Positions 1,180-40,431 of a DNA stretch of 45,724 nucleotides are shown here, in pieces; the stretch's first letter is position 1; every line of letters begins with the position of its first letter. The DNA is taken from positions 1 through 45,724 of the IMG/VR virus record IMGVR_UViG_3300008255_000022; one strand, 5' to 3'. The position numbers were made by a program, and so were the translations under genes. Origin of the DNA: a virus. Lineage: Duplodnaviria > Caudoviricetes. The notes under the pieces are model-generated. The model saw nothing but the letters and a program-made list of their open reading frames with translations. It made no database searches and had not been told where the DNA came from.

Positions 1180-1206
1180 AGCATTGGTTAATAATTAACC
1201 TATTCT
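1180..1206. repeat. 27-bp dyad element copy 1 (AGCATT-GGTTAATAATTAACC-TATTCT)
   Basis: Read directly; fills the gap between the stop at 1206 and the ATG at 1170. Confidence 0.95.
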
Positions 1207-5468: not shown

Positions 5469-5495
5469 AGAATTGGTTAATAATTAACCTATCCT
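5469..5495. repeat. 27-bp dyad element copy 2 (AGAATT-GGTTAATAATTAACC-TATCCT)
   Basis: Read directly; intergenic. Confidence 0.95.
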
Positions 5496-9851: not shown

Positions 9852-9878
9852 AGCATTGGTTAATTATTAACCCATTCT
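9852..9878. repeat. 27-bp dyad element copy 3 (AGCATT-GGTTAATTATTAACC-CATTCT)
   Basis: Occupies the whole gap between the stop at 9878 and the ATG at 9851. Confidence 0.95.
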
Positions 9879-14478: not shown

Positions 14479-14505
14479 AGGATAGGTTAATTATTAACGT
14501 ATTCT
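14479..14505. repeat. 27-bp dyad element copy 4 (AGGATA-GGTTAATTATTAACG-TATTCT, one core mismatch)
   Basis: Fills the gap immediately upstream of terL. Confidence 0.9.
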
Positions 14506-17980: not shown

Positions 17981-18009
17981 AATATACCAAACCACTAGTT
18001 GTGTGTCAA
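17981..18009 (-). promoter_or_regulatory. Sigma70-type promoter for the virion/lysis arm
   Basis: TTGACA-17 nt-TATATT with extended TG. Confidence 0.75.
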
Positions 18010-18035: not shown

Positions 18036-18062
18036 AGAATGGGTTAATTATTAACCTATCCT
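18036..18062. repeat. 27-bp dyad element copy 5 (AGAATG-GGTTAATTATTAACC-TATCCT)
   Basis: Read directly; just upstream of the virion-arm promoter. Confidence 0.95.
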
Positions 18063-19477: not shown

Positions 19478-19504
19478 AGGATAGGTTAATAATTAACCAA
19501 TTCT
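19478..19504. repeat. 27-bp dyad element copy 6 (AGGATA-GGTTAATAATTAACC-AATTCT)
   Basis: Read directly. Confidence 0.95.
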
Positions 19505-19523
19505 TACTCTCAATAACATAATG

Positions 19524-19550
19524 AGGATGGGTTAATAATTAACCAATTCT
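19524..19550. repeat. 27-bp dyad element copy 7 (AGGATG-GGTTAATAATTAACC-AATTCT)
   Basis: Read directly; 46 bp centre-to-centre from copy 6. Confidence 0.95.
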
Positions 19551-21236: not shown

Positions 21237-21338
21237 TTAGGCGAAGATCCACTCAACTATCTGTGCAGTGAAAGGATAGGTTAATAATTAACCAATGCTT
21301 AATAGCTCACAGATATGTTGATGTGGATTTTAACCTAA
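21237..21338 (+). other. Long imperfect hairpin enclosing dyad copy 8 (possible RNase III site or sRNA)
   Basis: TTAGG..AAGATCCAC-TCAAC-TATCTGTG pairs with CACAGATA-GTTGA-GTGGATTTT..CCTAA, with two bulges and a G-U pair. Confidence 0.55.
21273..21299. repeat. 27-bp dyad element copy 8 (AGGATA-GGTTAATAATTAACC-AATGCT)
   Basis: Read directly. Confidence 0.95.
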
Positions 21339-22232: not shown

Positions 22233-22847
22233 ATGTTAAAACCACATATCATAGTTAGAAAGAATCAAATAGCTGTACGATTTCCTTTTGATTTAACTGT
22301 GAAAGATGAACTAAAAGCAGCTGTCCCATTTGCTCAAAGAAAATGGGAGCCTAGCACAAAGTACTGGGTTCTATCCTCTACAAAGGAAAACTTTGAACAC
22401 GCAAAAAGGATCCTCAATAAAAAATGGGGACCAGATGTTATTGTGCTGAATGAAACAGGTAATCCGCAGATTACATTTGATACCAGTATAGACACTTCAT
22501 CTTATTACACTATTCTTGAAATCAGTGAGGATGCTTCTGCGAAGGAGATTAAAAAAGCTTACCGCTCTCTCATCGTGCAGCTACATCCAGACAAGGCACA
22601 AGGGGAGGTTGACACGAAGTATTTTCATCTTGTTCAGCGTGCCTATGAAACGTTGAAGGATGAAAAGCGTAGAAAAGCGTATGATCTCTCTCGCTCCGTT
22701 ATGTACAATCATAAGGAGCATGTTATCAGAGCAAAGGCTAAACAACCACCTCCGCCAGTTAACCGAGAGTACACTAAAAAAGAGCAACCAGAACAGCCAG
22801 AAGATGACTGGCTCGGGCCAAACTACTCAGGCTCATTCAGCACCTAA
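22233..22847 (+). CDS. J-domain (DnaJ) protein with N-terminal HARP-like domain
   Basis: YYTILEI...EIKKAYR...LHPDK...AYETL.D...RKAYD; N-terminal FPFD...K...RKW.P..K.W. Confidence 0.85.
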   Translation: MLKPHIIVRKNQIAVRFPFDLTVKDELKAAVPFAQRKWEPSTKYWVLSSTKENFEHAKRILNKKWGPDVIVLNETGNPQITFDTSIDTSSYYTILEISEDASAKEIKKAYRSLIVQLHPDKAQGEVDTKYFHLVQRAYETLKDEKRRKAYDLSRSVMYNHKEHVIRAKAKQPPPPVNREYTKKEQPEQPEDDWLGPNYSGSFST

Positions 22848-23092: not shown

Positions 23093-23674
23093 ATGAGTAA
23101 CTTAATTAAGGATAACAGTAACCTTGCTGAAGGATCTGTTTTCGACACCTCAAACAGTCAAGGCGTAAAGCCGGAAGATGTTTTAGCCAACTGCGATGTG
23201 ATCGTAATGCTAGACATTAGTGGAAGCATGGATGCTTTCGTTTACGGAGCTAACAAGAATCGTTGGGAAGCTGCTGTAGACCAACTTCGACTTATTCAAC
23301 GTACCTTTCCAGGTCGTGTAGCCCTTATCCAGTTCGGAGGAATGGTTACAGGATTTCGCTTCAACGGAATACCAGATCGACCTACTGGTTCTACTCCTAT
23401 GCATGAAGCTATGGCTATAGCTCATGATTTTGATAATCAAGGCAAACAGTTTTACCTCATCAGCGATGGTCAACCAGATCGAGTAGAAATAGTTCATCAA
23501 TGGGCAAAGGCTTTTGTATCCCCTATTAATACTATCTTTATTGGAGATGATAACGATATTAGTGGTATTAGGCTGTTAGGGGAAGTCAGTCGATTTAGTG
23601 GAGGTGAAGCTTCTGGTAAGCTTGAACCGCAGATGCTCGGTGAAGCAATGAAACTTCTCATCACAAGACAGTAA
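23093..23674 (+). CDS. von Willebrand factor A domain protein
   Basis: MIDAS DISGSM, GSTPM, ISDGQP. Confidence 0.85.
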   Translation: MSNLIKDNSNLAEGSVFDTSNSQGVKPEDVLANCDVIVMLDISGSMDAFVYGANKNRWEAAVDQLRLIQRTFPGRVALIQFGGMVTGFRFNGIPDRPTGSTPMHEAMAIAHDFDNQGKQFYLISDGQPDRVEIVHQWAKAFVSPINTIFIGDDNDISGIRLLGEVSRFSGGEASGKLEPQMLGEAMKLLITRQ

Positions 23675-24392: not shown

Positions 24393-24419
24393 AGAATTGG
24401 TTAATTATTAACCTATCCT
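24393..24419. repeat. 27-bp dyad element copy 9 (AGAATT-GGTTAATTATTAACC-TATCCT)
   Basis: Fills a 37-bp intergenic gap. Confidence 0.95.
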
Positions 24420-26322: not shown

Positions 26323-26949
26323 TTGGTTCTCCCTCTATCCGTTTTATGGCACACATACTCTCTCCTAATCGTGCGCCCCTACATCTACATTCATGTTCCA
26401 CAGACAGGCGGTACTTCCCTCGAGCATATCCTTAACGGTACCCCACATAAAAAATCTGCAGCTGAGTTATACCCTGAGTATACAGACGCTGAGTGGAAAC
26501 AACTTTTTGTATTCAGCCTCATTCGTAATCCATACGACAGGGCTGTAGCATTGTACCTCGAACGCTACTATGCGAATGCGTACGGTATGCTTGAGGATGA
26601 TGTATCGTTTAGTGAGTTCTTAGAACTTACGCTGATTCTGCGTAGATCGCCGTACTTTGACAATTGGTCTTTTTACGCTCCGCAGAAATACTGGCTGGAA
26701 AATAAGTTTGGTAGAGTCGTAGTCCCTCACCTCTATCCCTTCGAGCAGTATGATAAATCTGTTCGTAGGATTCTTAAAAAACTCGGTCATCCCTCTCCAG
26801 ATGATGTTGAAATTCCTCACATTCGCAATGTAGGACAACCTGACTGGAGACCTTACTACCTAGGTGAGGATGGACGTAAGGCTGCACACATCGTGCAGAC
26901 AGTTTGGGAGGACGACTTCAAATATCTTAACTACACAAGGAAGCTATGA
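26323..26949 (+). CDS. Sulfotransferase family 2-like protein (start may be GTG 26371)
   Basis: IYIHVPQTGGTS, FSLIRNPYDR, PQ..W, V...DF..LNY. Confidence 0.75.
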   Translation: MVLPLSVLWHTYSLLIVRPYIYIHVPQTGGTSLEHILNGTPHKKSAAELYPEYTDAEWKQLFVFSLIRNPYDRAVALYLERYYANAYGMLEDDVSFSEFLELTLILRRSPYFDNWSFYAPQKYWLENKFGRVVVPHLYPFEQYDKSVRRILKKLGHPSPDDVEIPHIRNVGQPDWRPYYLGEDGRKAAHIVQTVWEDDFKYLNYTRKL

Positions 26950-27400: not shown

Positions 27401-27427
27401 AGAATGGGTTAATAATTAACCAATGCT
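27401..27427. repeat. 27-bp dyad element copy 10 (AGAATG-GGTTAATAATTAACC-AATGCT)
   Basis: Abuts the ATG at 27428. Confidence 0.95.
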
Positions 27428-29800: not shown

Positions 29801-29931
29801 CGTCCCATATTTGCCGTGTACGGCGTCCAAATTGAACCCACACCGATACCCGTATAACGGGATTCATGTCCGTACAACGAACGTCAGGCATCAATCCCGG
29901 CCCCTATCACATTTTCCTCCATCCCGTCCCG

Positions 29932-30437
29932 ATGAAAACAACTCAACCATTAGCGGTGTCATATGCAGGTGTGCAATGCCACTTCACACATATGAACCAG
30001 ATAAAGCTAACTACGGGCTGTTGTATGCTAATAAGGCATTGAATAAAGTATCCGGCTTTGTGTTCCGTTTAGGTGTAGGAGTTGGTCAAGGCAAATGGGC
30101 TGAAATTATCGCCAACACTTCTAACAACAGCGGAATGAAGAGGTTGGTGGAAGTAGAAGAGCCTACAGATACAAGTATACAAATTATTAGCCTTGACAGT
30201 CATATCACTGTACTATCTGTCAATGGACCTGTTGGGTTAATCAAGATAGATGTTGAAGGTAATGAGGTTGACGTAATTCTTGGAGCTAAAAAACTTATAT
30301 CTACACAGCGCCCAGTGATCGCTATTGAAACTGATAAACCTAATATAGTTCAAGAACTTCTTCCAAGTGGTTACATTAGACAAAAGACCAAGAATGCTAC
30401 GGATACATACATATTCTGGCCACTCCCATTGATATAA
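29932..30437 (+). pseudogene. FkbM-family methyltransferase lacking the SAM-binding motif (apparent deletion/frameshift)
   Basis: YEP...N, LIKIDVEG.E..V..GA and RP.I.IE present; DxGANxG absent; a plausible N-terminus (ATG 29932) is in another frame. Confidence 0.6.
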
Positions 30438-31343: not shown

Positions 31344-31370
31344 AGGATAGGTTATTTATTAACCCATTCT
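31344..31370. repeat. 27-bp dyad element copy 11 (AGGATA-GGTTATTTATTAACC-CATTCT, one core mismatch)
   Basis: Read directly; intergenic. Confidence 0.9.
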
Positions 31371-31874: not shown

Positions 31875-31948
31875 TGCGGGGTAGAGCAGTCTGGCAGCTC
31901 GTTTGGCTCATATCCAAAAGGTCGCTGGTTCAAATCCAGCCCCCGCAA
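31875..31948 (+). tRNA. tRNA-Met (CAT), initiator-like body, no encoded CCA
   Basis: Full cloverleaf: TGCGGGG/CCCCGCA acceptor, GAGC/GCTC D stem, TTTGG-CTCATAT-CCAAA, GCTGG-TTCAAAT-CCAGC. Confidence 0.9.
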
Positions 31949-32004
31949 CAAATGCTTGCGCAGAGCATGTTTATGACCACGAAGGCCAAGTGGTAACTGC
32001 GCGT

Positions 32005-32771: not shown

Positions 32772-33033
32772 GTTTGATGACAGTGTTCGATTAGGTTCGT
32801 TGCGTAAAAACATGTCTGAGATGAGCGATGATGAGCTTCGTGCTCTCATAGGTGAGTCTCGAAACAATCGTGTGCCTAAGCCAAAGGCAAAGCGTGTAAA
32901 GGCTAAGGCAGATACAAAGGCAAAAGCGAAAGCGAAAAAAGCTGCGCCCAACCTTCTATCCTCTGATTCTCTCGAATCCATGAGTCCAGAAATGGCAGCA
33001 ATGCTACTCAAACAATTAGGCGACAATGGCTGA
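32764..33033 (+). CDS. Small Lys/Ala-rich protein (start reassigned to ATG 32764)
   Basis: KPKAKRVKAKADTKAKAKAKKAA histone-H1-like tract. Confidence 0.65.
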   Translation: MTEFDDSVRLGSLRKNMSEMSDDELRALIGESRNNRVPKPKAKRVKAKADTKAKAKAKKAAPNLLSSDSLESMSPEMAAMLLKQLGDNG

Positions 33034-34423
33034 ACGCAAAATACAATATCGTCTCGAGGACGTAAACATACACGATATAGATCCTGGTGTACGTGTTCGC
33101 AAGGACATGGGAAACATTGATAGCCTTGCAGCTAACATACATCAGTTTGGTCTACATCATCCTATCCTTGTTGTAGATAAAGAATGCTTACCAGAAAAGC
33201 ATGAGGCGAGAACAGATGCTCGCCCATTCCTACTGGTCGCTGGTGAGCGTAGATTTCGTGCCTGTGAATCTCTTAAGCATGATAAGATTGCTGCGAAAGT
33301 AACAGAACATCTCCTTGATGAGTGGGAGATTCGTGTTATCGAGCTGGACGAGAACCTTCGCCGGAAAGAAATGACTCCGGTTGAAGAGGCCCTCGCCAAG
33401 AAGCACATCCACGATCTATACGTGGAACGGTATGGTAAGGCCAGTCCAGGTACTGGAGGTGGCGGACATAGCGTAAAGGACACAGCCGAAATTCTTGGCG
33501 AGTCTCGTGCTAACGTTTCCCATGATCTCAAGATCGCAGAATACTCAAATATTATTCCTGAGTTAAAGGATGCGAAAACGAAGAGCGAAGCTCGTAAGCT
33601 CATTTCTCAGCTTGAACAGAAAGTTGCTCGCGAGGAGCTTGCCAAACGTGCGAAAGCTAAGGCTGAAGCTAAGGGTGCACAGCGTACAGAAACGAGGAAA
33701 GAACTCCTCTTCAAACGTTACGTAACCTGTGACTATTTCGACGGTTTGAAAAAGCTGCAGGACCGTAGTGTAGATTTCATGGAACTCGATCCAGACTGGG
33801 GAATCATGTTCAAAGAACGTGTCCTATCTCGTGGGTCCCTCACTGCTGCTGAGTATGATACTCTCCAGCCAGAGGATTATGTCGAGGGTATTAATGAAAT
33901 CATGAAGGCAGCGTACGATGTTCTTAAAGATAATAGTTGGATCATTGTTTGGTATTCTCTTGAAGAGTGGCATAAAGAAACAAGGGAAGCAATTGAGGCA
34001 GCTGGCTTTACAGTGTGTGCTATGCCAGCGTTCTGGATTCATACTAGTAACTTCACTGCGACGCCAGCTTATAGACTTGGGCAACGGACAGAGTCTTTCT
34101 TTTACGCTCGGAAGGGATCTCCCAGAATTGGTGCAATGGGACACCCTAACACCTTCACAGCGAGGACACTCAACCAGAACGAACGCGATCATCCAGCAGA
34201 AAAGCCCATTGAGTTATACGAGGATATTATCAAATGTTTTCTTGGCGACACGAAAGGAAAACTCTGTGTTACGGGATTTGCCGGAAGCGGAAATTTCCTA
34301 CTTGCCGCCGATAACCTTGAGCACAACTGCATCGGATTCGACACCTCGAAAGCATACCAAGATAACTTTGTTCTCAAAGTAAACAAAGGTAATCCCGGTC
34401 AATTCAAATCTTACATCTCATGA
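33026..34423 (+). CDS. ParB-like CTPase + HTH + N6/N4 DNA methyltransferase-fold fusion
   Basis: LA.NI...GL.HPI, LVAGERRFRA, ELDENL.R, HTH SVKDTAEILGESRANVSHDL; MTase motifs DPDW (for DPPY), HPAEKP and FAGSG. Confidence 0.85.
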   Translation: MAERKIQYRLEDVNIHDIDPGVRVRKDMGNIDSLAANIHQFGLHHPILVVDKECLPEKHEARTDARPFLLVAGERRFRACESLKHDKIAAKVTEHLLDEWEIRVIELDENLRRKEMTPVEEALAKKHIHDLYVERYGKASPGTGGGGHSVKDTAEILGESRANVSHDLKIAEYSNIIPELKDAKTKSEARKLISQLEQKVAREELAKRAKAKAEAKGAQRTETRKELLFKRYVTCDYFDGLKKLQDRSVDFMELDPDWGIMFKERVLSRGSLTAAEYDTLQPEDYVEGINEIMKAAYDVLKDNSWIIVWYSLEEWHKETREAIEAAGFTVCAMPAFWIHTSNFTATPAYRLGQRTESFFYARKGSPRIGAMGHPNTFTARTLNQNERDHPAEKPIELYEDIIKCFLGDTKGKLCVTGFAGSGNFLLAADNLEHNCIGFDTSKAYQDNFVLKVNKGNPGQFKSYIS

Positions 34424-34761
34424 TATATTTAGCTTCCCCATACAGCGATAAGGATAAGAGGGTAGTTGTTTCCAGATACAATGAGGTGCTTGAGTTCTGT
34501 GCGAATAGGATAAAGGAAGGACATATTGTGTTCAGTCCTATCGTACACTGTCATGTAATGGCTCAGCGTTTCGAGATGCCTGGAAATCATTTATTCTGGT
34601 GGAAGTATGATACCAGTATGATTGATATTGCTGATGAGGTATGGATTCTTTGTCTACCGTACTGGCAAATGTCTATTGGTGTTGGAAAGGAGATAGCTTA
34701 TGCCGAAAAGATAGGAAAGAAGGTACGCTATTTTAACCCTCTTGGAGCTGAAATATCATGA
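34420..34761 (+). CDS. DUF1937 / nucleoside deoxyribosyltransferase-fold protein
   Basis: MIYLASPYS, VFSPIVHCH, W..S.GV..EI..A...GK.V. Confidence 0.75.
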   Translation: MIYLASPYSDKDKRVVVSRYNEVLEFCANRIKEGHIVFSPIVHCHVMAQRFEMPGNHLFWWKYDTSMIDIADEVWILCLPYWQMSIGVGKEIAYAEKIGKKVRYFNPLGAEIS

Positions 34762-37190
34762 GCTATGTACGAGCAACAGGGCCTCGCAACGCTAAGATAG
34801 TTTTCGTTGGTGACAATGCTTCCATTGAAGATGGTAAATCTGGTAAACCCTTCTCTGGCAGGAATGGTAAAATGTTTACGCATTTGCTGGCGCAAGCTGG
34901 CTTGTTGCGAGAGATATGTTACCTAACCAACGTTATTAAAGAATCCTGCACCTACAATAACGTAGGTAATTTTATTGATCTGAGCAAAAAAATCCCTGTC
35001 GTTAGTGATGAGGGGTATAACTACATTCAGATCCTCCAACAGGAGTTAATGGACCTCAGGCCCAACGTTGTTGTGGCTGTTGGTAATGTAGCACTCTGGG
35101 CACTCACTGGTGAACGTGGAATAAGCAAATGGCGGAATAGTGTTCTTGAGGGATTTAATGGTATGAAAGTTATTCCTATTCTCCCTCCAGGTTTCGCTAT
35201 GAATGATTATGTTGCACGCCACCTAATCTACCATGATCTGCAAACAGTAGCACTTCATCAAAATGATCCTACTGTTCCAAAGGATGAAAGGGAGTATATC
35301 ATATTTCCGGGCTATGCGCAAACACTTGAATTCCTCGACGAATGTTTGAATCATGAGCATATAGCTTTCGACATTGAAGTTGGTGGCGATGATGATGGGA
35401 GGGAGGTATCCTGTATAAGTTTTGCTTATAACAACAAGCGCGTTATAAGTATACCATTTTCCAATGGACCTGATCCATATTTCTTACCTCCACAAGAAAT
35501 AGAAGTATGGTTACGGATTGAGCAGTTGCTTGAAAGTTCTAAGGTTATAAAGATAGCTCAAAATGCTTCATTTGACGTAACCTTCCTTTACCGTAAGTAT
35601 GGAATCAGGACAAAAAATATCCGTGATACTATGATCGCGGAAGGTATTATTCATCCTGACTTTAAAAAGGGTCTTGGTGCTATCACAGCATGGTACACCA
35701 CTATGCCGTACTATAAGGATGAGGGTAAGACCGGCTTCAAGAGTCAGTATAATGAGGGATTCTTCCTCTACAACGCGAAGGATAGTATTGTCCTAATGGA
35801 AGCATATCCTCGCATGGTTGCTGAGCTGAAAAAGTTAGGAAATTATGACACGTTCTTAAGCCAGTGCGAACTCATTGAACCCCTTACCTACATGAGTGAG
35901 CGTGGCTTTCGCGTTGACAAAGAAGGTATGGAGAAAAAGAGCAGAGAGCTTGGATTATCCATTGAGGAGGATCGGTTAAAGATTCAAGCTCTTGCTGGTT
36001 ACGACATTAATCCTGCTAGTCCAGCACAACTTATTGAATATTTTTATGAGGAGAAAGGATATCCGGTCTATAAGAACAGAAAAACAGGCCGACCCACAAC
36101 AGATGAAATGGCCCTCAAACGTTTGTCTCGTAAAGGTGCAAAGGAAGCGTCACTTATCCTCGACATGAGGGAAAAGGCCAAGCTCAAGTCTACATACCTC
36201 GATGTAAAGCTTGGCAATGATGATAGGTTACGTGGTAGCTTCAATCCAATCGGAACAAGCACACTTCGTCTATCCTCCAGTTCAGACATATTCGGTGTAG
36301 GAACCAACCTTCAAAACCTGCCACCAAGGATGAAAGCCAACATCTTACCAGATGAAGGCTATGTCATGTTCGAGATTGACCTTGCACAGGCAGAAAATCG
36401 TGTGGTTGCATACATAGCACCAGAGCCAAAGATGATGGCAGCTTTCGAACAGGGTCTTGATATTCATAGCCAAACAGCCGGTATGATGTTTGATATGGAT
36501 ATTAATACTGTCATCCGGCTGAATAAAGAGTACAGTCTAGCAGGCTCCCCATCTATTCCCGAGTACTGTCCTCCCATTGGGCAAGGTAATAAGCCATTTC
36601 GTTATTGGGGGAAGCAAGCGAATCATGCCCTCAACTACGGCCTTGGCCCAAACAGTGCGGCACTTCGATGGGAGATTCCTCAGAATGATGCCAAGTTTAT
36701 CTACGAACGATATCATACTGTCTATCCAGGTGTTCGTCAGATGCACAGATGGATTGAACATGACCTCCGAACTAAGCGTTGTGTGACTAACCTTTTCGGT
36801 TTCAGCAGATATTTTCTAGGACGTTGGGAGGATATAGTTAAACAAGCTTACGCTTTCGTAGCACAGTCAACCATAGGCGAAGTCCTCAATCGTCGTGGAG
36901 TTAAGTATATCTATTACCGCACTGACCTCTTTCCTGAAGTACAACTCCTCAATCAGATCCATGACAGTGTTGTATTTCAGATCCCTCTTGAGGTCGGATG
37001 GGACAGGATCAATCGTATCATCAACCTCATCATAGCTAATCTACAAAACCCTCTTGAGTTTCGTGGTAGGATATTTAGCACACCAGCCGATGTAAAAGTC
37101 ATAGGTGGTAGTATGACTGATGGTGTAGAAGTTAAACAAGTCAACCCAGCCTCTCTCCAAAAAGCATGGGAAGAATCGGTTAATAATTAA
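34758..37190 (+). CDS. polA: DNA polymerase family A with N-terminal UDG-like and 3'-5' exonuclease domains
   Basis: UDG fold (KPF.G..G, YLTNV.K); ExoI FDIE, ExoII QNASFD, ExoIII YNAKD; motif A DLAQAENR, B K..NHALNYG, C HDS. Confidence 0.93.
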   Translation: MSYVRATGPRNAKIVFVGDNASIEDGKSGKPFSGRNGKMFTHLLAQAGLLREICYLTNVIKESCTYNNVGNFIDLSKKIPVVSDEGYNYIQILQQELMDLRPNVVVAVGNVALWALTGERGISKWRNSVLEGFNGMKVIPILPPGFAMNDYVARHLIYHDLQTVALHQNDPTVPKDEREYIIFPGYAQTLEFLDECLNHEHIAFDIEVGGDDDGREVSCISFAYNNKRVISIPFSNGPDPYFLPPQEIEVWLRIEQLLESSKVIKIAQNASFDVTFLYRKYGIRTKNIRDTMIAEGIIHPDFKKGLGAITAWYTTMPYYKDEGKTGFKSQYNEGFFLYNAKDSIVLMEAYPRMVAELKKLGNYDTFLSQCELIEPLTYMSERGFRVDKEGMEKKSRELGLSIEEDRLKIQALAGYDINPASPAQLIEYFYEEKGYPVYKNRKTGRPTTDEMALKRLSRKGAKEASLILDMREKAKLKSTYLDVKLGNDDRLRGSFNPIGTSTLRLSSSSDIFGVGTNLQNLPPRMKANILPDEGYVMFEIDLAQAENRVVAYIAPEPKMMAAFEQGLDIHSQTAGMMFDMDINTVIRLNKEYSLAGSPSIPEYCPPIGQGNKPFRYWGKQANHALNYGLGPNSAALRWEIPQNDAKFIYERYHTVYPGVRQMHRWIEHDLRTKRCVTNLFGFSRYFLGRWEDIVKQAYAFVAQSTIGEVLNRRGVKYIYYRTDLFPEVQLLNQIHDSVVFQIPLEVGWDRINRIINLIIANLQNPLEFRGRIFSTPADVKVIGGSMTDGVEVKQVNPASLQKAWEESVNN

Positions 37191-37198
37191 CCTATCCT
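37172..37198. repeat. 27-bp dyad element copy 12 (AGAATC-GGTTAATAATTAACC-TATCCT)
   Basis: Encodes the last codons and stop of polA (ESVNN*). Confidence 0.95.
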
Positions 37199-37211: not shown

Positions 37212-38417
37212 ATGGCTAAGCGAGGAGATTGGCTCAAACTTTATCTCGAATACGTCGAGAACACTGAACCACCTATCTTATACAAAGAATGGGTAGCTAT
37301 CTCTGCAATAGCTTCAGTGTTGAAACGTAAGACCTGGCTTGATTGGGGACTAGATTCTCGTATATTTCCCAACATGTACATAGTCTTAGTCGGACCTCCT
37401 GGTCGCTGTAGAAAGGGTACAGCTATGGCACCAGCAGCTTTACTGATTCGTAAGATAGGTGTGAAAATGTCTGCCAGTTCTATCACACGTGAGGCACTTA
37501 TCAAAGAACTGGAGGAGTCGTCTGCTCTTGATGATATAAACGGAGATATAGTAGTTCATTCTTCCCTCACAGTTAACAGTCCAGAGCTTACCGTTTTCCT
37601 GGGACAGGATAATAAGGAAATGCTCATGACCTTAACTGACTGGTACGACTGCGCAGGTGAATGGGAGTATAGAACAAAAACTCAGGGTACTAACACAGTC
37701 ACTGGAGTTTGGGTCAACCTCCTCGGAGCCACTACGCCACATCTTATTCAGAATGCACTTCCTCTTGATGCAGTAGGTGGAGGTTTAGCTAGCCGTATGG
37801 TGTTTGTTTATGAGGATCGTATTGGCAAACGAGTCCCTGCACCATTCCTCACACAGTTACAAAAAGATCAAGCAGAACAACTGTTGAATGAGTTAACAGA
37901 TATTAGTAAGTTGAATGGTGCTTTCCAACTCACTGCAGATGCTATGGATGCTTGGGTAGATTGGTACATGAACATGGAGAAAACTAATCCAAAAATGCCT
38001 CCGACATTTGAGGGTTATCTCAATCGCCGTCAGACGCACCTGCGTAAGCTCCTTATGATCCTGAGTGCAAGTAGATCCAACGACATGATTATCAATGTAG
38101 ATGATTTCACTCGTGCTCTCGATCTACTACAACGGACAGAACGTAAGATGCCACGTACCTTTGCTGGCATGGGTAGTAGTCGGAATAGTCAGACCATTAC
38201 TATCCTCCACGAATACATATCAGAAAAAGGTCGTGTTACTATTAAGGAACTCTACAGTGACCTATACGGACACGTTGAATCACCTCAACAATTCCAGCAA
38301 CTTCTCAGTATGCTGATCACACAGGGTTTCTGTAAAACAGAGAAAGCTGGCAATGACACGTTCATCGTCTATCAGAAGAACAACAAGCTCAATACGCAGT
38401 ACGGACAACAGCCCTAG
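37212..38417 (+). CDS. DUF3987/YfjI-like P-loop protein (putative replicative helicase)
   Basis: NMYIVLVGPPGRCRKGTA, T.EAL, L...YD, LLGATTP, GGLASR; winged-helix-like C-terminus. Confidence 0.7.
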   Translation: MAKRGDWLKLYLEYVENTEPPILYKEWVAISAIASVLKRKTWLDWGLDSRIFPNMYIVLVGPPGRCRKGTAMAPAALLIRKIGVKMSASSITREALIKELEESSALDDINGDIVVHSSLTVNSPELTVFLGQDNKEMLMTLTDWYDCAGEWEYRTKTQGTNTVTGVWVNLLGATTPHLIQNALPLDAVGGGLASRMVFVYEDRIGKRVPAPFLTQLQKDQAEQLLNELTDISKLNGAFQLTADAMDAWVDWYMNMEKTNPKMPPTFEGYLNRRQTHLRKLLMILSASRSNDMIINVDDFTRALDLLQRTERKMPRTFAGMGSSRNSQTITILHEYISEKGRVTIKELYSDLYGHVESPQQFQQLLSMLITQGFCKTEKAGNDTFIVYQKNNKLNTQYGQQP

Positions 38418-38439
38418 CATCTTTCCCACAACGTCTAGC

Positions 38440-39222
38440 ATGAACAGTAACAAGAACAAAATCATCATCGGTGTAGCAACTGTTTACACTCGCAGAAAAT
38501 TCTTCACACAGAAAGTGCTTCCTGGACTTGTTGAAGCATCTGCTCTTGTCCATGTGTTTAGAGACTTTGACGCTTCTGTAACAGTGCTGCCGGACACTAA
38601 CAAAGGAGTACAGTATTATACAGCTACTGAATTTTCTCGTAATCTTGGAGACAGCGGAAAATTCCTTGGTTACGAAAGTGAGCTGTTTGACGGAACAGAT
38701 GAGTTCTATTACTTCTCATGTGACGATGACCTCATCTACGCTCCAGAGTATTTTGATTACATGATCGCAGCCATTGAACGCTTCGATAGGAAGGCTGTAG
38801 TATCACTGCACGGAAACACCTTTCATAAATTCCCTATCAATAGCTATTATGGAGATAAGAAAGGTTATAGTTGTTTACGTCCGAACAGGGTTGATCGCCG
38901 TGTTCTATTCCCTGGTACAGGAGTTATGGCCTTTCACAGCTCTCTCATCAGAGATTTTATCCTCGCAGACCTGATGCCAGTGCCTAATATGGCAGATATA
39001 TGGATGGGACTGGAGCTACAAAAAAGGAAAATTCCCGCAGTGACAATTAAGCACAACGGGAATCTCCTTACCTACCACGACAAACTACCTGTCCAGCAGA
39101 CCATCTGGGGTCAAGCCTTCAACAACGACTTTATTCAGACTGCTCTGGTGAATCAGTTTTCCTTGAATCCGGGATTTGCTCTTTACCCTCTTGTCCAGCC
39201 TCATAATCCTCAATCGGAATGA
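38440..39222 (+). CDS. GT-A fold glycosyltransferase (start reassigned to ATG 38440)
   Basis: GDSGKF, YYFSCDDDLIY.PEY, GTGVMAF, NMADIW. Confidence 0.8.
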   Translation: MNSNKNKIIIGVATVYTRRKFFTQKVLPGLVEASALVHVFRDFDASVTVLPDTNKGVQYYTATEFSRNLGDSGKFLGYESELFDGTDEFYYFSCDDDLIYAPEYFDYMIAAIERFDRKAVVSLHGNTFHKFPINSYYGDKKGYSCLRPNRVDRRVLFPGTGVMAFHSSLIRDFILADLMPVPNMADIWMGLELQKRKIPAVTIKHNGNLLTYHDKLPVQQTIWGQAFNNDFIQTALVNQFSLNPGFALYPLVQPHNPQSE

Positions 39223-40324
39223 TAGCGTCATATAAACGCTGAATCTTCGGATCATTCGGATAACGTCTGAGATAGTCTGCGAACAGTGTTTTCGCTTCTC
39301 CTAACCTGCCAAGTTTGAGAGCACACTCTCCTGCAGGTCCGCAGATATAAGCATGGTCAAGCTTGTAACTGAACTCCTCGTTGAGGTACTGCTGAAGAGC
39401 AAGCGTACTTCCGAGGAAAGTGTATGCTGCAGCCCACTTCTCTAACAGCATATACGACATACCCATGAAGAGGAAACTCATAGCCTCTTCTGGTTTGAGT
39501 TCAAGCATAGCTTTCGCATACTTGAGACCCTCAACGTATAGCTGCATGGTGTAACAAGAATGTGCAGCAATGATAAGAGCTGAGTAGCCATTCTGACTTG
39601 TGAGCTTATCCAAGTCAGTAACACGTATCCAAGCCAAACAAGTATCATACTCCTTCATCATGAAGTAAGCATTGGCTACTTGAAAGTTGTAGTACTCAGC
39701 TCGATCAATGTGGCCTGCTTCTCTGTTTGCAATGACCTCATCCTTCATGGCTTGCACACGCTTGCTATACTTCTCCTTCAATTCTTCCGGAGACAGGTTA
39801 TAGCCATGATGCCGAAACTCAAGAGGTACTTTGATTATTTTCGCATCCTTACCATCGAGAGGGTTTTGCTTGATTGGTTCAGCGATTTGGTTATGTACCT
39901 TACCAATGTAGCGAAACTCTGGACAGCTACGAAACAAGCGTATCTGCCAAATAACATCTCCTTCTAGAAGTTGATTCTGCGGAAGAAGATTGTTAATACG
40001 GACAGTAACTGCGTCCGCTTTGTTCTGCTCAATTTCTGTCTGCGCAACACCGAGGAGCTCAGGGTTTGTAATCTCCTCATCGGCGTCGAGTATAAGGATC
40101 GTATCATTTGTAGCTAGATCTATTGACCTATTACGAGCATGGGAAAAACCCTCCCATTCAATGCACTCAAGCACTGTAGCGTACTCAGTAGCAATTTCAA
40201 TCGTTCCATCAGTAGACCCGGTGTCTACAATAATGATTTCATCAACGTGATCTTTCACGCTCTCCAAACAATTGCGAAGATGTTTTTCTTCATCCTTCAC
40301 AATCATACATATTGAGATACCCAT
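39131..40324 (-). CDS. GT2 glycosyltransferase with TPR repeats
   Basis: ISICMIVKDEE, VDTGSTDGT, FS.ARN, LDADE, RLFR, H.GY followed by TPR-like helices. Confidence 0.9.
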   Translation of the reverse strand: MGISICMIVKDEEKHLRNCLESVKDHVDEIIIVDTGSTDGTIEIATEYATVLECIEWEGFSHARNRSIDLATNDTILILDADEEITNPELLGVAQTEIEQNKADAVTVRINNLLPQNQLLEGDVIWQIRLFRSCPEFRYIGKVHNQIAEPIKQNPLDGKDAKIIKVPLEFRHHGYNLSPEELKEKYSKRVQAMKDEVIANREAGHIDRAEYYNFQVANAYFMMKEYDTCLAWIRVTDLDKLTSQNGYSALIIAAHSCYTMQLYVEGLKYAKAMLELKPEEAMSFLFMGMSYMLLEKWAAAYTFLGSTLALQQYLNEEFSYKLDHAYICGPAGECALKLGRLGEAKTLFADYLRRYPNDPKIQRLYDAIIPIEDYEAGQEGKEQIPDSRKTDSPEQSE

Positions 40325-40404: not shown

Positions 40405-40431
40405 AGGATAGGTTAATTATTAACCAATTCT
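40405..40431. repeat. 27-bp dyad element copy 13 (AGGATA-GGTTAATTATTAACC-AATTCT)
   Basis: Read directly; intergenic. Confidence 0.95.

Follow-up and report, generated by a model that had tools for sequence, protein, structure and literature searches.

Fusions of ParB to a methyltransferase are among the commonest ParB fusions of phages, and no DNA target has been assigned to them in the literature that we found. The combination of a ParB CTPase domain with an N6_N4 methyltransferase was published as phage-enriched, with its role unassigned (PMC12704722); the string 'palindrom' does not occur in the main text of that paper, and we found no DNA target given there for the fusions. Two ParB-N6N4 constructs were cloned for the panel of that work, and its section 8 names none among the NTP binders in an assay that was run without cognate DNA. 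The ParB partner of a phage T-dioxygenase is described as functioning without its NTP-binding residues (PMC13229309). The only characterised ParB-methyltransferase that we found, the prophage protein BCE_0392 (M.BceSVII), behaved as a promiscuous m6A enzyme when cloned (PMC3526280); its signal in E. coli was weak, and a second-hand report states that it had no activity on lambda DNA in vitro (PMC3459991). By analogy, this behaviour fits a loosely specific enzyme that would need a loading site. Since methylation by M.BceSVII took place in E. coli in the absence of known sites, such gating may be partial. Our literature search, which took in few subscription journals, returned no paper that connects ParB-methyltransferase fusions with dispersed dyads or a recognition code.

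The phage genome and its fusion gene

The window, i.e. the whole stretch of 45,724 nucleotides that was analysed, is a complete podovirus-like phage genome of 45.6 kb with a terminal redundancy of 123 nt, and the record is classed as 100% complete with direct terminal repeats. Its gene set includes an SU10-type capsid and portal, a terminase, a UDG-fused PolA, a DUF3987 primase, Sak4 and an exonuclease. The same layout is seen in Desulfofustis phage LS06-2018-MD01, on which the literature search found no paper, and more distantly in PaMx41-like phages. One binned genome contains a relative on a phage-sized contig, and that bin need not be the host. The features are collected in Table 1.

Table 1. 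Features of the window, with positions counted from its first nucleotide
Feature	Position	Strand	Remarks
Dyad 1, 27 bp	1180..1206	.	consensus AGVATNGGTTAAT-W-ATTAACCNATBCT
Dyad 2	5469..5495	.	
Dyad 3	9852..9878	.	
Dyad 4	14479..14505	.	one mismatch to consensus
Dyad 5	18036..18062	.	a leftward sigma70-like -35 box stands at 18009, with the dyad about 27 nt upstream of it
Dyads 6 and 7	19478..19550	.	in tandem, 46 bp apart, between the divergent arms of the genome
Dyad 8	21273..21299	.	
Dyad 9	24393..24419	.	
Dyad 10	27401..27427	.	
Dyad 11	31344..31370	.	at the Sak4-SSB junction, where the nearest relatives carry a variant of their own
Dyad 12	37172..37198	.	at the polymerase-primase junction, where the nearest relatives carry a variant of their own
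Dyad 13	40405..40431	.	
ParB-HTH-methyltransferase fusion, 465 aa	33026..34423	+	core gene; the UDG-PolA polymerase and primase genes follow just downstream
ParB N-terminal CTPase-fold domain, aa 1-135	33026..33430	+	R23xR25, G73-E-R-R76, E106-L-D-E-N110, R113
Helix-turn-helix, aa 147-172	33464..33541	+	recognition helix G158-E-S-R161...H166; co-variation with dyad bases at residues 160, 161 and 166
Long Lys/Arg/Ala-rich helical linker, aa 186-231	33581..33718	+	in the place that the linker and C-terminal dimer domain occupy in canonical ParB
Beta-class amino-methyltransferase domain, aa 232-463	33719..34414	+	DPDW 255-258 (motif IV), HPAEKP 389-394, GFAGSG 417-422 (motif I)
RHH-like small protein, 79 aa	32532..32771	+	conserved core gene two ORFs upstream of the fusion
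Lys-rich protein, 97 aa	32740..33033		directly upstream of the fusion; core gene in 69/72 family genomes
DUF1937/deoxyribosyltransferase-like gene	34420..34761		precedes the polymerase gene
Family A DNA polymerase	34758..37190		uracil-DNA-glycosylase-like domain at N-terminus
tRNA-Met gene	31875..31949		between the SSB-like gene and the operon of the fusion
DnaJ-domain protein adjoining vWA-domain protein	22233..22847, 23093..23674		early region
Glycosyltransferase-like pair (one GT2-TPR), sulfotransferase, FkbM methyltransferase fragment	38353..40324, 26323..26949, 29811..30437		possible surface or virion modification set

The preliminary description had read the gene as a ParB N-domain and helix-turn-helix (HTH) joined to a methyltransferase, and this architecture was confirmed: the C-terminal part has the motif order IV-TRD-I and the fold of a beta-class N6/N4 methyltransferase, and the N-domain carries the GxRR and EN..R motifs, as in ParB-family CTPase clamps. 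Residues of the CTP pocket are near-invariant among full-length homologues, R113 being present in 226 of 227 and the GxRR stretch likewise retained; residues 73-76 read GGRR in 116/227 and GERR in 100/227. In the HTH, R161 is in register with the arginine of ParB GKSR when GESR is laid on it, and the Pfam KorB match to this region lies below the cut-off. No match to a ParB C-terminal domain was found in the fusion.

It had also been suggested that DPDW and TGFAGSG hint at unusual catalytic chemistry. The published consensus of motif IV is (D/N/S)PP(Y/F/W), from which the DPDW of the window departs at position 3; the first residue of the motif acts on the amino group and the last stacks on the base, both being required (PMC7544214). 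DPDW keeps these first and last residues, and we therefore read it as drift in one clade and not as new chemistry or decay. Among the 227 full-length homologues, motif IV is DPPY in 136, DPDW in 29, DPPW in 26 and DPPF in 13, and motif I reads PFAGSG or PFLGSG in 109 homologues, with GFAGSG in 25, while D255, P256, G420 and G422 are each conserved in at least 90%. As most of the family has DPPY and PF(A/L)GSG, we read both deviations as drift at the level of the clade, and the suggestion was rejected. Judging from the sequences, the Pro-to-Asp change would probably be harmless.

ParA is absent, as was first described: PF13614 gave no matches in the complete window genome, and PF01656 gave none above the cut-off in 34 relatives, with two weak matches. 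The ParA-binding peptide (motif as defined in PMC12704722) was absent from all 75 fusion N-termini that were searched. Similarly, no cognate restriction endonuclease lies beside the methyltransferase, its neighbours being small ORFs of no assigned function, the DUF1937/deoxyribosyltransferase-like gene and the polymerase.

At E < 1e-30, 685 relatives of the fusion were found among 50%-identity representatives, and the phage family that carries it is large and mostly uncultured. In 77 of 80 viral loci the gene precedes the polymerase. When records were collected by way of the primase or polymerase, all 32 that were at least 90% complete carried the fusion gene, as did 35 of all 39.

Co-occurrence and co-variation of the fusion and the dyads

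We scanned 72 family genomes, namely 71 under our own handles, including the window, and the Desulfofustis phage. A dyad family was accepted at a score of at least 27 bits with at least four copies, a threshold that was chosen after seeing the data. Of the 71 family genomes that carry the fusion gene, 65 had an accepted dyad family, the six without one being G007, G024, G026, G037, G060 and G063; none of seven relatives without the fusion had one. Each phage has dyads of its own sequence, built on a common plan in which two arms flank an A/T spacer. With the first detector, no more than 2-5 copies were seen in Markov shuffles, against 7-21 in most real genomes; this control covers the copy counts of that detector. 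Scans of viral contigs with the exact dyad and with the single protein gave no matches, and a wide alignment (A2) was too divergent for scanning.

The seven relatives comprise six syntenic GenBank phages (PaMx41, Tiera, EBPR podovirus 3, Aeromonas P5, vir526 and Kuura), which scored 18.8-26.1 bits, the 26.1 bits of EBPR podovirus 3 being close to the threshold, and G067 (79% complete), which has no fusion, polymerase or dyads and keeps the RHH gene and the small terminase. G067 (L173, L371, L372) is a mosaic in which the family's virion genes, primase and RHH gene are joined to a lambdoid replication and recombination block. Among more distant fusion-bearing GenBank phages, Mel-JY34, VS-ABTNL-3, ctMlz233 and ctLwi270 reached 18.7-24.9 bits, all below the threshold, and in ctMlz233 a 7-copy dyad is recognisable by eye only. 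A still more distant ParB-HTH-methyltransferase with DPPY (L404; G074:C313, 10744-12039), which adjoins the same polymerase and primase, had no accepted dyad in 19 kb. At L380 and L401 dyads are present at lower density, with six copies in a whole contig of 42.6 kb. In G010, G022 and G023 the dyads are of even length and their spacer is shorter by one base, which implies a changed dimer geometry.

The fusion is not the only widespread gene of the family. The RHH-like gene is found in 69 of the 72 family genomes and the small terminase gene in 58, so that co-occurrence alone cannot tell them from the fusion. Another protein, such as the RHH-like protein, the HTH small subunit of the terminase or a host factor, could read the dyads, with the fusion as a bystander core gene, and we regard this as improbable on the evidence that follows. 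This evidence includes the match between residues of the HTH and bases of the dyads. Three near-duplicates and a genome in which the contig end truncates the gene were set aside, which left 61 protein-motif pairs for this comparison.

Position 9 of the half-site is G in 16 of the 20 pairs with Arg or His at residue 161, and in 3 of the 41 pairs with other residues, a rule that was first spotted by eye and that 54/61 pairs obey. In C. crescentus ParB, R173, which is equivalent to residue 161 of the fusion, hydrogen-bonds a guanine of parS (PMC7383237). Fifteen independent pairs drawn on a FastTree phylogeny of polymerase, primase, capsid and portal changed in the same direction in 11.7 cases, in the opposite direction in 0 and remained unchanged in 3.3 (p ~0.0005); on the tree of the fusion without its HTH, the corresponding numbers were 6.1, 0 and 0.9 of 7 (p ~0.03). 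In addition, G at position 11 accompanies D160 and K166, with 5-6 independent pairs in the same direction and none in the opposite one. A further candidate, residue 151 with position 7, failed this test (4 same, 2 opposite) and was rejected.

Each dyad base was also predicted by leave-one-out from 18 core proteins with 5,071 alignment columns. For G9, residue 161 ranked first among the predictors with 0% and with 15% of the nearest genomes excluded, and it was no longer first once the nearest 30% were excluded. Residues 166 and 160 were the top two predictors of G11 under all three exclusions. In a blind scan of 4,656 windows of 24 residues from the same proteins, the stretch aa 138/139-163/164 of the fusion came first in all six settings, with scores of 20.7-22.1 against 17.5-18.4 for the next best at the core positions and 37.3-38.6 against 33.5-35.6 at all positions. 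The per-base prediction took over from partial Mantel tests on whole motifs, which were noisy, pointed to aa 136-145 and 268-280 and did not single out the recognition helix.

Held-out partial loci, which are kin of the training set, had an accepted motif in 21 of 54 cases and none in 33; the 161 rule was obeyed in 20 of these 21 and the 160/166 rule in 18. The nearest relatives of the window (55-58% identity, with DPDW, K161 and M166) have AT(Y)YGTTCAAT-W-ATTGAAC dyads, six copies of which lie in one 42.6-kb contig, so that the same Sak4-SSB and polymerase-primase junctions carry GTTCAAT in these phages and GGTTAAT in the window.

These data speak against the RHH-like protein as the reader of the dyads. 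Its strand R-L-S-I-E is near-constant while the dyads vary, and in the window scan it scored 14.6-16.7, against the 20.7-22.1 of the fusion HTH. When two phages agree in five RHH strand residues, their dyads nevertheless differ at about 3 of the 7 core positions, whereas pairs that agree in 4-5 HTH residues differ at 0.75-1.65 of 7, the residues for this comparison having been picked after the fact. G067 also argues against both candidates, since it keeps the RHH gene and the small terminase and has no dyads; the small terminase was too patchy for the window scan and is excluded by G067 only. The RHH protein could instead be an autoregulator or a KorA-like lock of the clamp.

Co-occurrence and the co-variation between HTH and bases together make the dyads very likely parS-like sites of the fusion, and the link between protein and dyads that had been proposed is thus strongly supported. 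From the sequences, the HTH of the fusion binds the dyads with high probability.

Dyad spacing and the proposed mechanism

The preliminary description had also proposed that a clamp loading at the 13 dyads could cover the whole genome, and their spacing supports this. In the window, the largest gap between dyads is 6.5 kb and every point lies within about 3.2 kb of the nearest one; across family genomes the medians are 12 sites and a largest gap of 8.1 kb, with a CV of 0.5. Compared with randomly chosen gene junctions, the spacing was more even in 37 of 48 genomes by largest gap and in 41 of 48 by CV (window, p 0.001), and with a uniform null the dyads were over-dispersed in 31 of 48. No centromere-like clustering was found in these 48 genomes with either null. 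Even spacing together with the absence of ParA fits a clamp that would have to cover the whole genome.

Since 427 of 555 sites are no further than 100 nt from a gene junction, and a dyad stands just 3' of the capsid gene in 47 of 60 genomes, we considered that the dyads could be hairpins in RNA or single-strand DNA, such as terminators, processing sites or promoters of a virion polymerase. At variable positions, however, the arms are complementary in 577 of 1,635 cells against 792 expected for independent draws, with lower values in 55 of 61 genomes. Perfect dyads make up 43 of 675 sites, folding energies range from -1 to -7.6 kcal/mol, and a consistent U tract is absent. As the arms are less complementary than independent draws and folding is weak, the dyads are not hairpins in our reading, and we rejected this explanation as very improbable. 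At arm positions 3 and 6 of the window dyads, the arms match in 1 of 26 cases (8.7 expected). Avoidance of perfect palindromes possibly reflects selection against cruciforms or recombination.

A role as promoter operators was likewise rejected. A strong sigma70-like match lies within 60 nt of 25 of 675 dyads, against 83 of 1,411 control gaps, so that such matches are no commoner near dyads than elsewhere and the dyads are not typical operators.

The mechanism that we favour is as follows. The fusion very likely reads the 13 private palindromes of the phage through its ParB HTH, after which a CTP-gated clamp would close and slide a few kb each way. Beta-class methyltransferases act as dimers (PMC7544214), and an obligate dimer of this domain likely stands in for the ParB C-terminal dimer domain; it would close the ring and place the active sites on the trapped DNA. 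The enzyme would then likely write N6-methyladenine on the DNA that it passes, with little sequence preference, and phage DNA, not host DNA, would be marked and shielded from restriction enzymes. We give this self-restricted marking of the genome against host restriction a probability of about one half. The palindromes co-vary with the DNA-reading helix and are thus likely loading sites, which would likely permit selective methylation of the phage's own genome. By analogy with the biochemistry of ParB, KorB and BisD, nucleotide binding stimulated by the site, clamp closure and sliding are probable. Motif conservation and the example of M.BceSVII put the overall chances that the domain is an active, promiscuous m6A methylase confined by loading at about even.

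The same evidence of binding would serve a fusion that loads at the dyads and slides from them to coat or silence the genome, in the manner of KorB and BisD, with the methyltransferase acting mainly as a dimer module or writing a regulatory mark. KorB slides from its OB sites and represses distant promoters (PMC11790492), and BisD slides about 50 kb and activates (PMC12409273). Tandem dyad pairs like that of the window stand in the control region between the divergent arms in G012 (40-bp pairs) and G023 (a 35-bp pair) as well, and the conserved RHH-like gene two ORFs upstream could encode a KorA-like partner. Against this stand the catalytic and SAM-binding residues, which are among the best-conserved of the C-terminal half, and the scarcity of sigma70-like matches near the dyads given above. 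We hold a coat or silencer to be unlikely.

Slightly less likely again is that binding of the HTH to the dyads organises the DNA for replication, recombination, packaging or a tether to host ParA or SMC, with the methyltransferase as a solitary, sequence-specific enzyme independent of loading. The gene does lie in the replication block, beside the polymerase at the 77 of 80 loci mentioned above and beside the primase in 66 of 80, and a part in phage replication or packaging has been suggested for BCE_0392 (PMC3459991). CTAG, CATG and GATC are under-represented family-wide, as in phages still facing restriction, which speaks for an independent methyltransferase. Partition or tethering is opposed by the lack of ParA in the window and above the cut-off in the 34 relatives, by the 75 N-termini without the ParA-binding motif and by the even spread of the dyads without a centromere-like cluster; moreover, the two domains remain fused family-wide.

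Taken together, the evidence on mechanism favours self-restricted methylation over a coat or silencer, DNA organisation, another reader and hairpins. A family-wide system of a CTP-gated sliding clamp with a promiscuous methylase and private, co-evolving, evenly placed loading sites would amount to self-recognition by position, not by target sequence, with anti-restriction marking of the whole genome that leaves the host chromosome untouched; we advance this tentatively, at odds a little short of even.

The dyads provide exact candidate sites and a residue-to-base rule that can be tested by one substitution, and the roughly 60 natural pairs of protein and site form a much wider specificity series than ParB versus Noc. 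If loading gates the methylase, the fusion would be a clamp that delivers an enzyme and a new means by which a phage tells its own DNA from that of the host. If true, it would also offer a reprogrammable tool with which kb-long domains could be methylated around a 27-bp tag of choice.

Comparison with known systems

The fusion and its dyads resemble ParB-parS and Noc-NBS in the N-domain with GxRR and EN..R, in the register of the HTH, in the arginine-to-guanine rule and in the palindromic site (PMC7383237). They differ from these in that the fusion comes without ParA or a ParA-binding motif and has a methyltransferase in place of the C-terminal dimer domain, while the window sites are 27 bp long, have a 5-bp A/T spacer and are spread evenly round the genome, with a specificity that varies from phage to phage. 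The system would work like a ParB clamp system and is not a member of ParABS.

In KorB-OB of plasmid RK2 and BisD-bisS of ICEclc, too, a protein of the ParB family has sites dispersed over the mobile element that encodes it (PMC11790492, PMC12409273), and in both the protein is used beyond or apart from partition. A count of 12 sites for KorB is given in a title cited in the former source. KorB has IncC (ParA) and KorA as partners and represses; the dyads described here are not enriched at promoters. BisD has an activator domain (PMC12409273), and neither protein, as described in these sources, carries an enzyme.

The published phage ParB-CTPase-N6_N4 fusions and M.BceSVII share the same two Pfam domains with the fusion (PMC12704722, PMC3526280, PMC3459991). 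Compared with the beta-class methyltransferases CcrM, M.BceJIV, M1.HpyAVI and M.EcoGII, the clade of the window has Asp, not Pro, at the third position of motif IV (PMC7544214), and a separate ParB HTH appears to supply its targeting.

Finally, the 17-bp dyads of Cluster O mycobacteriophages are likewise many, dispersed and independent of promoters, with a dimeric binder predicted and ParB-like proteins present (PMC4351075). In the text of that report their function is left open by the authors. Those phages are unrelated to the family described here, and their dyads differ from ours in occurring as 34 invariant copies, a third of which lie inside genes (PMC4351075).
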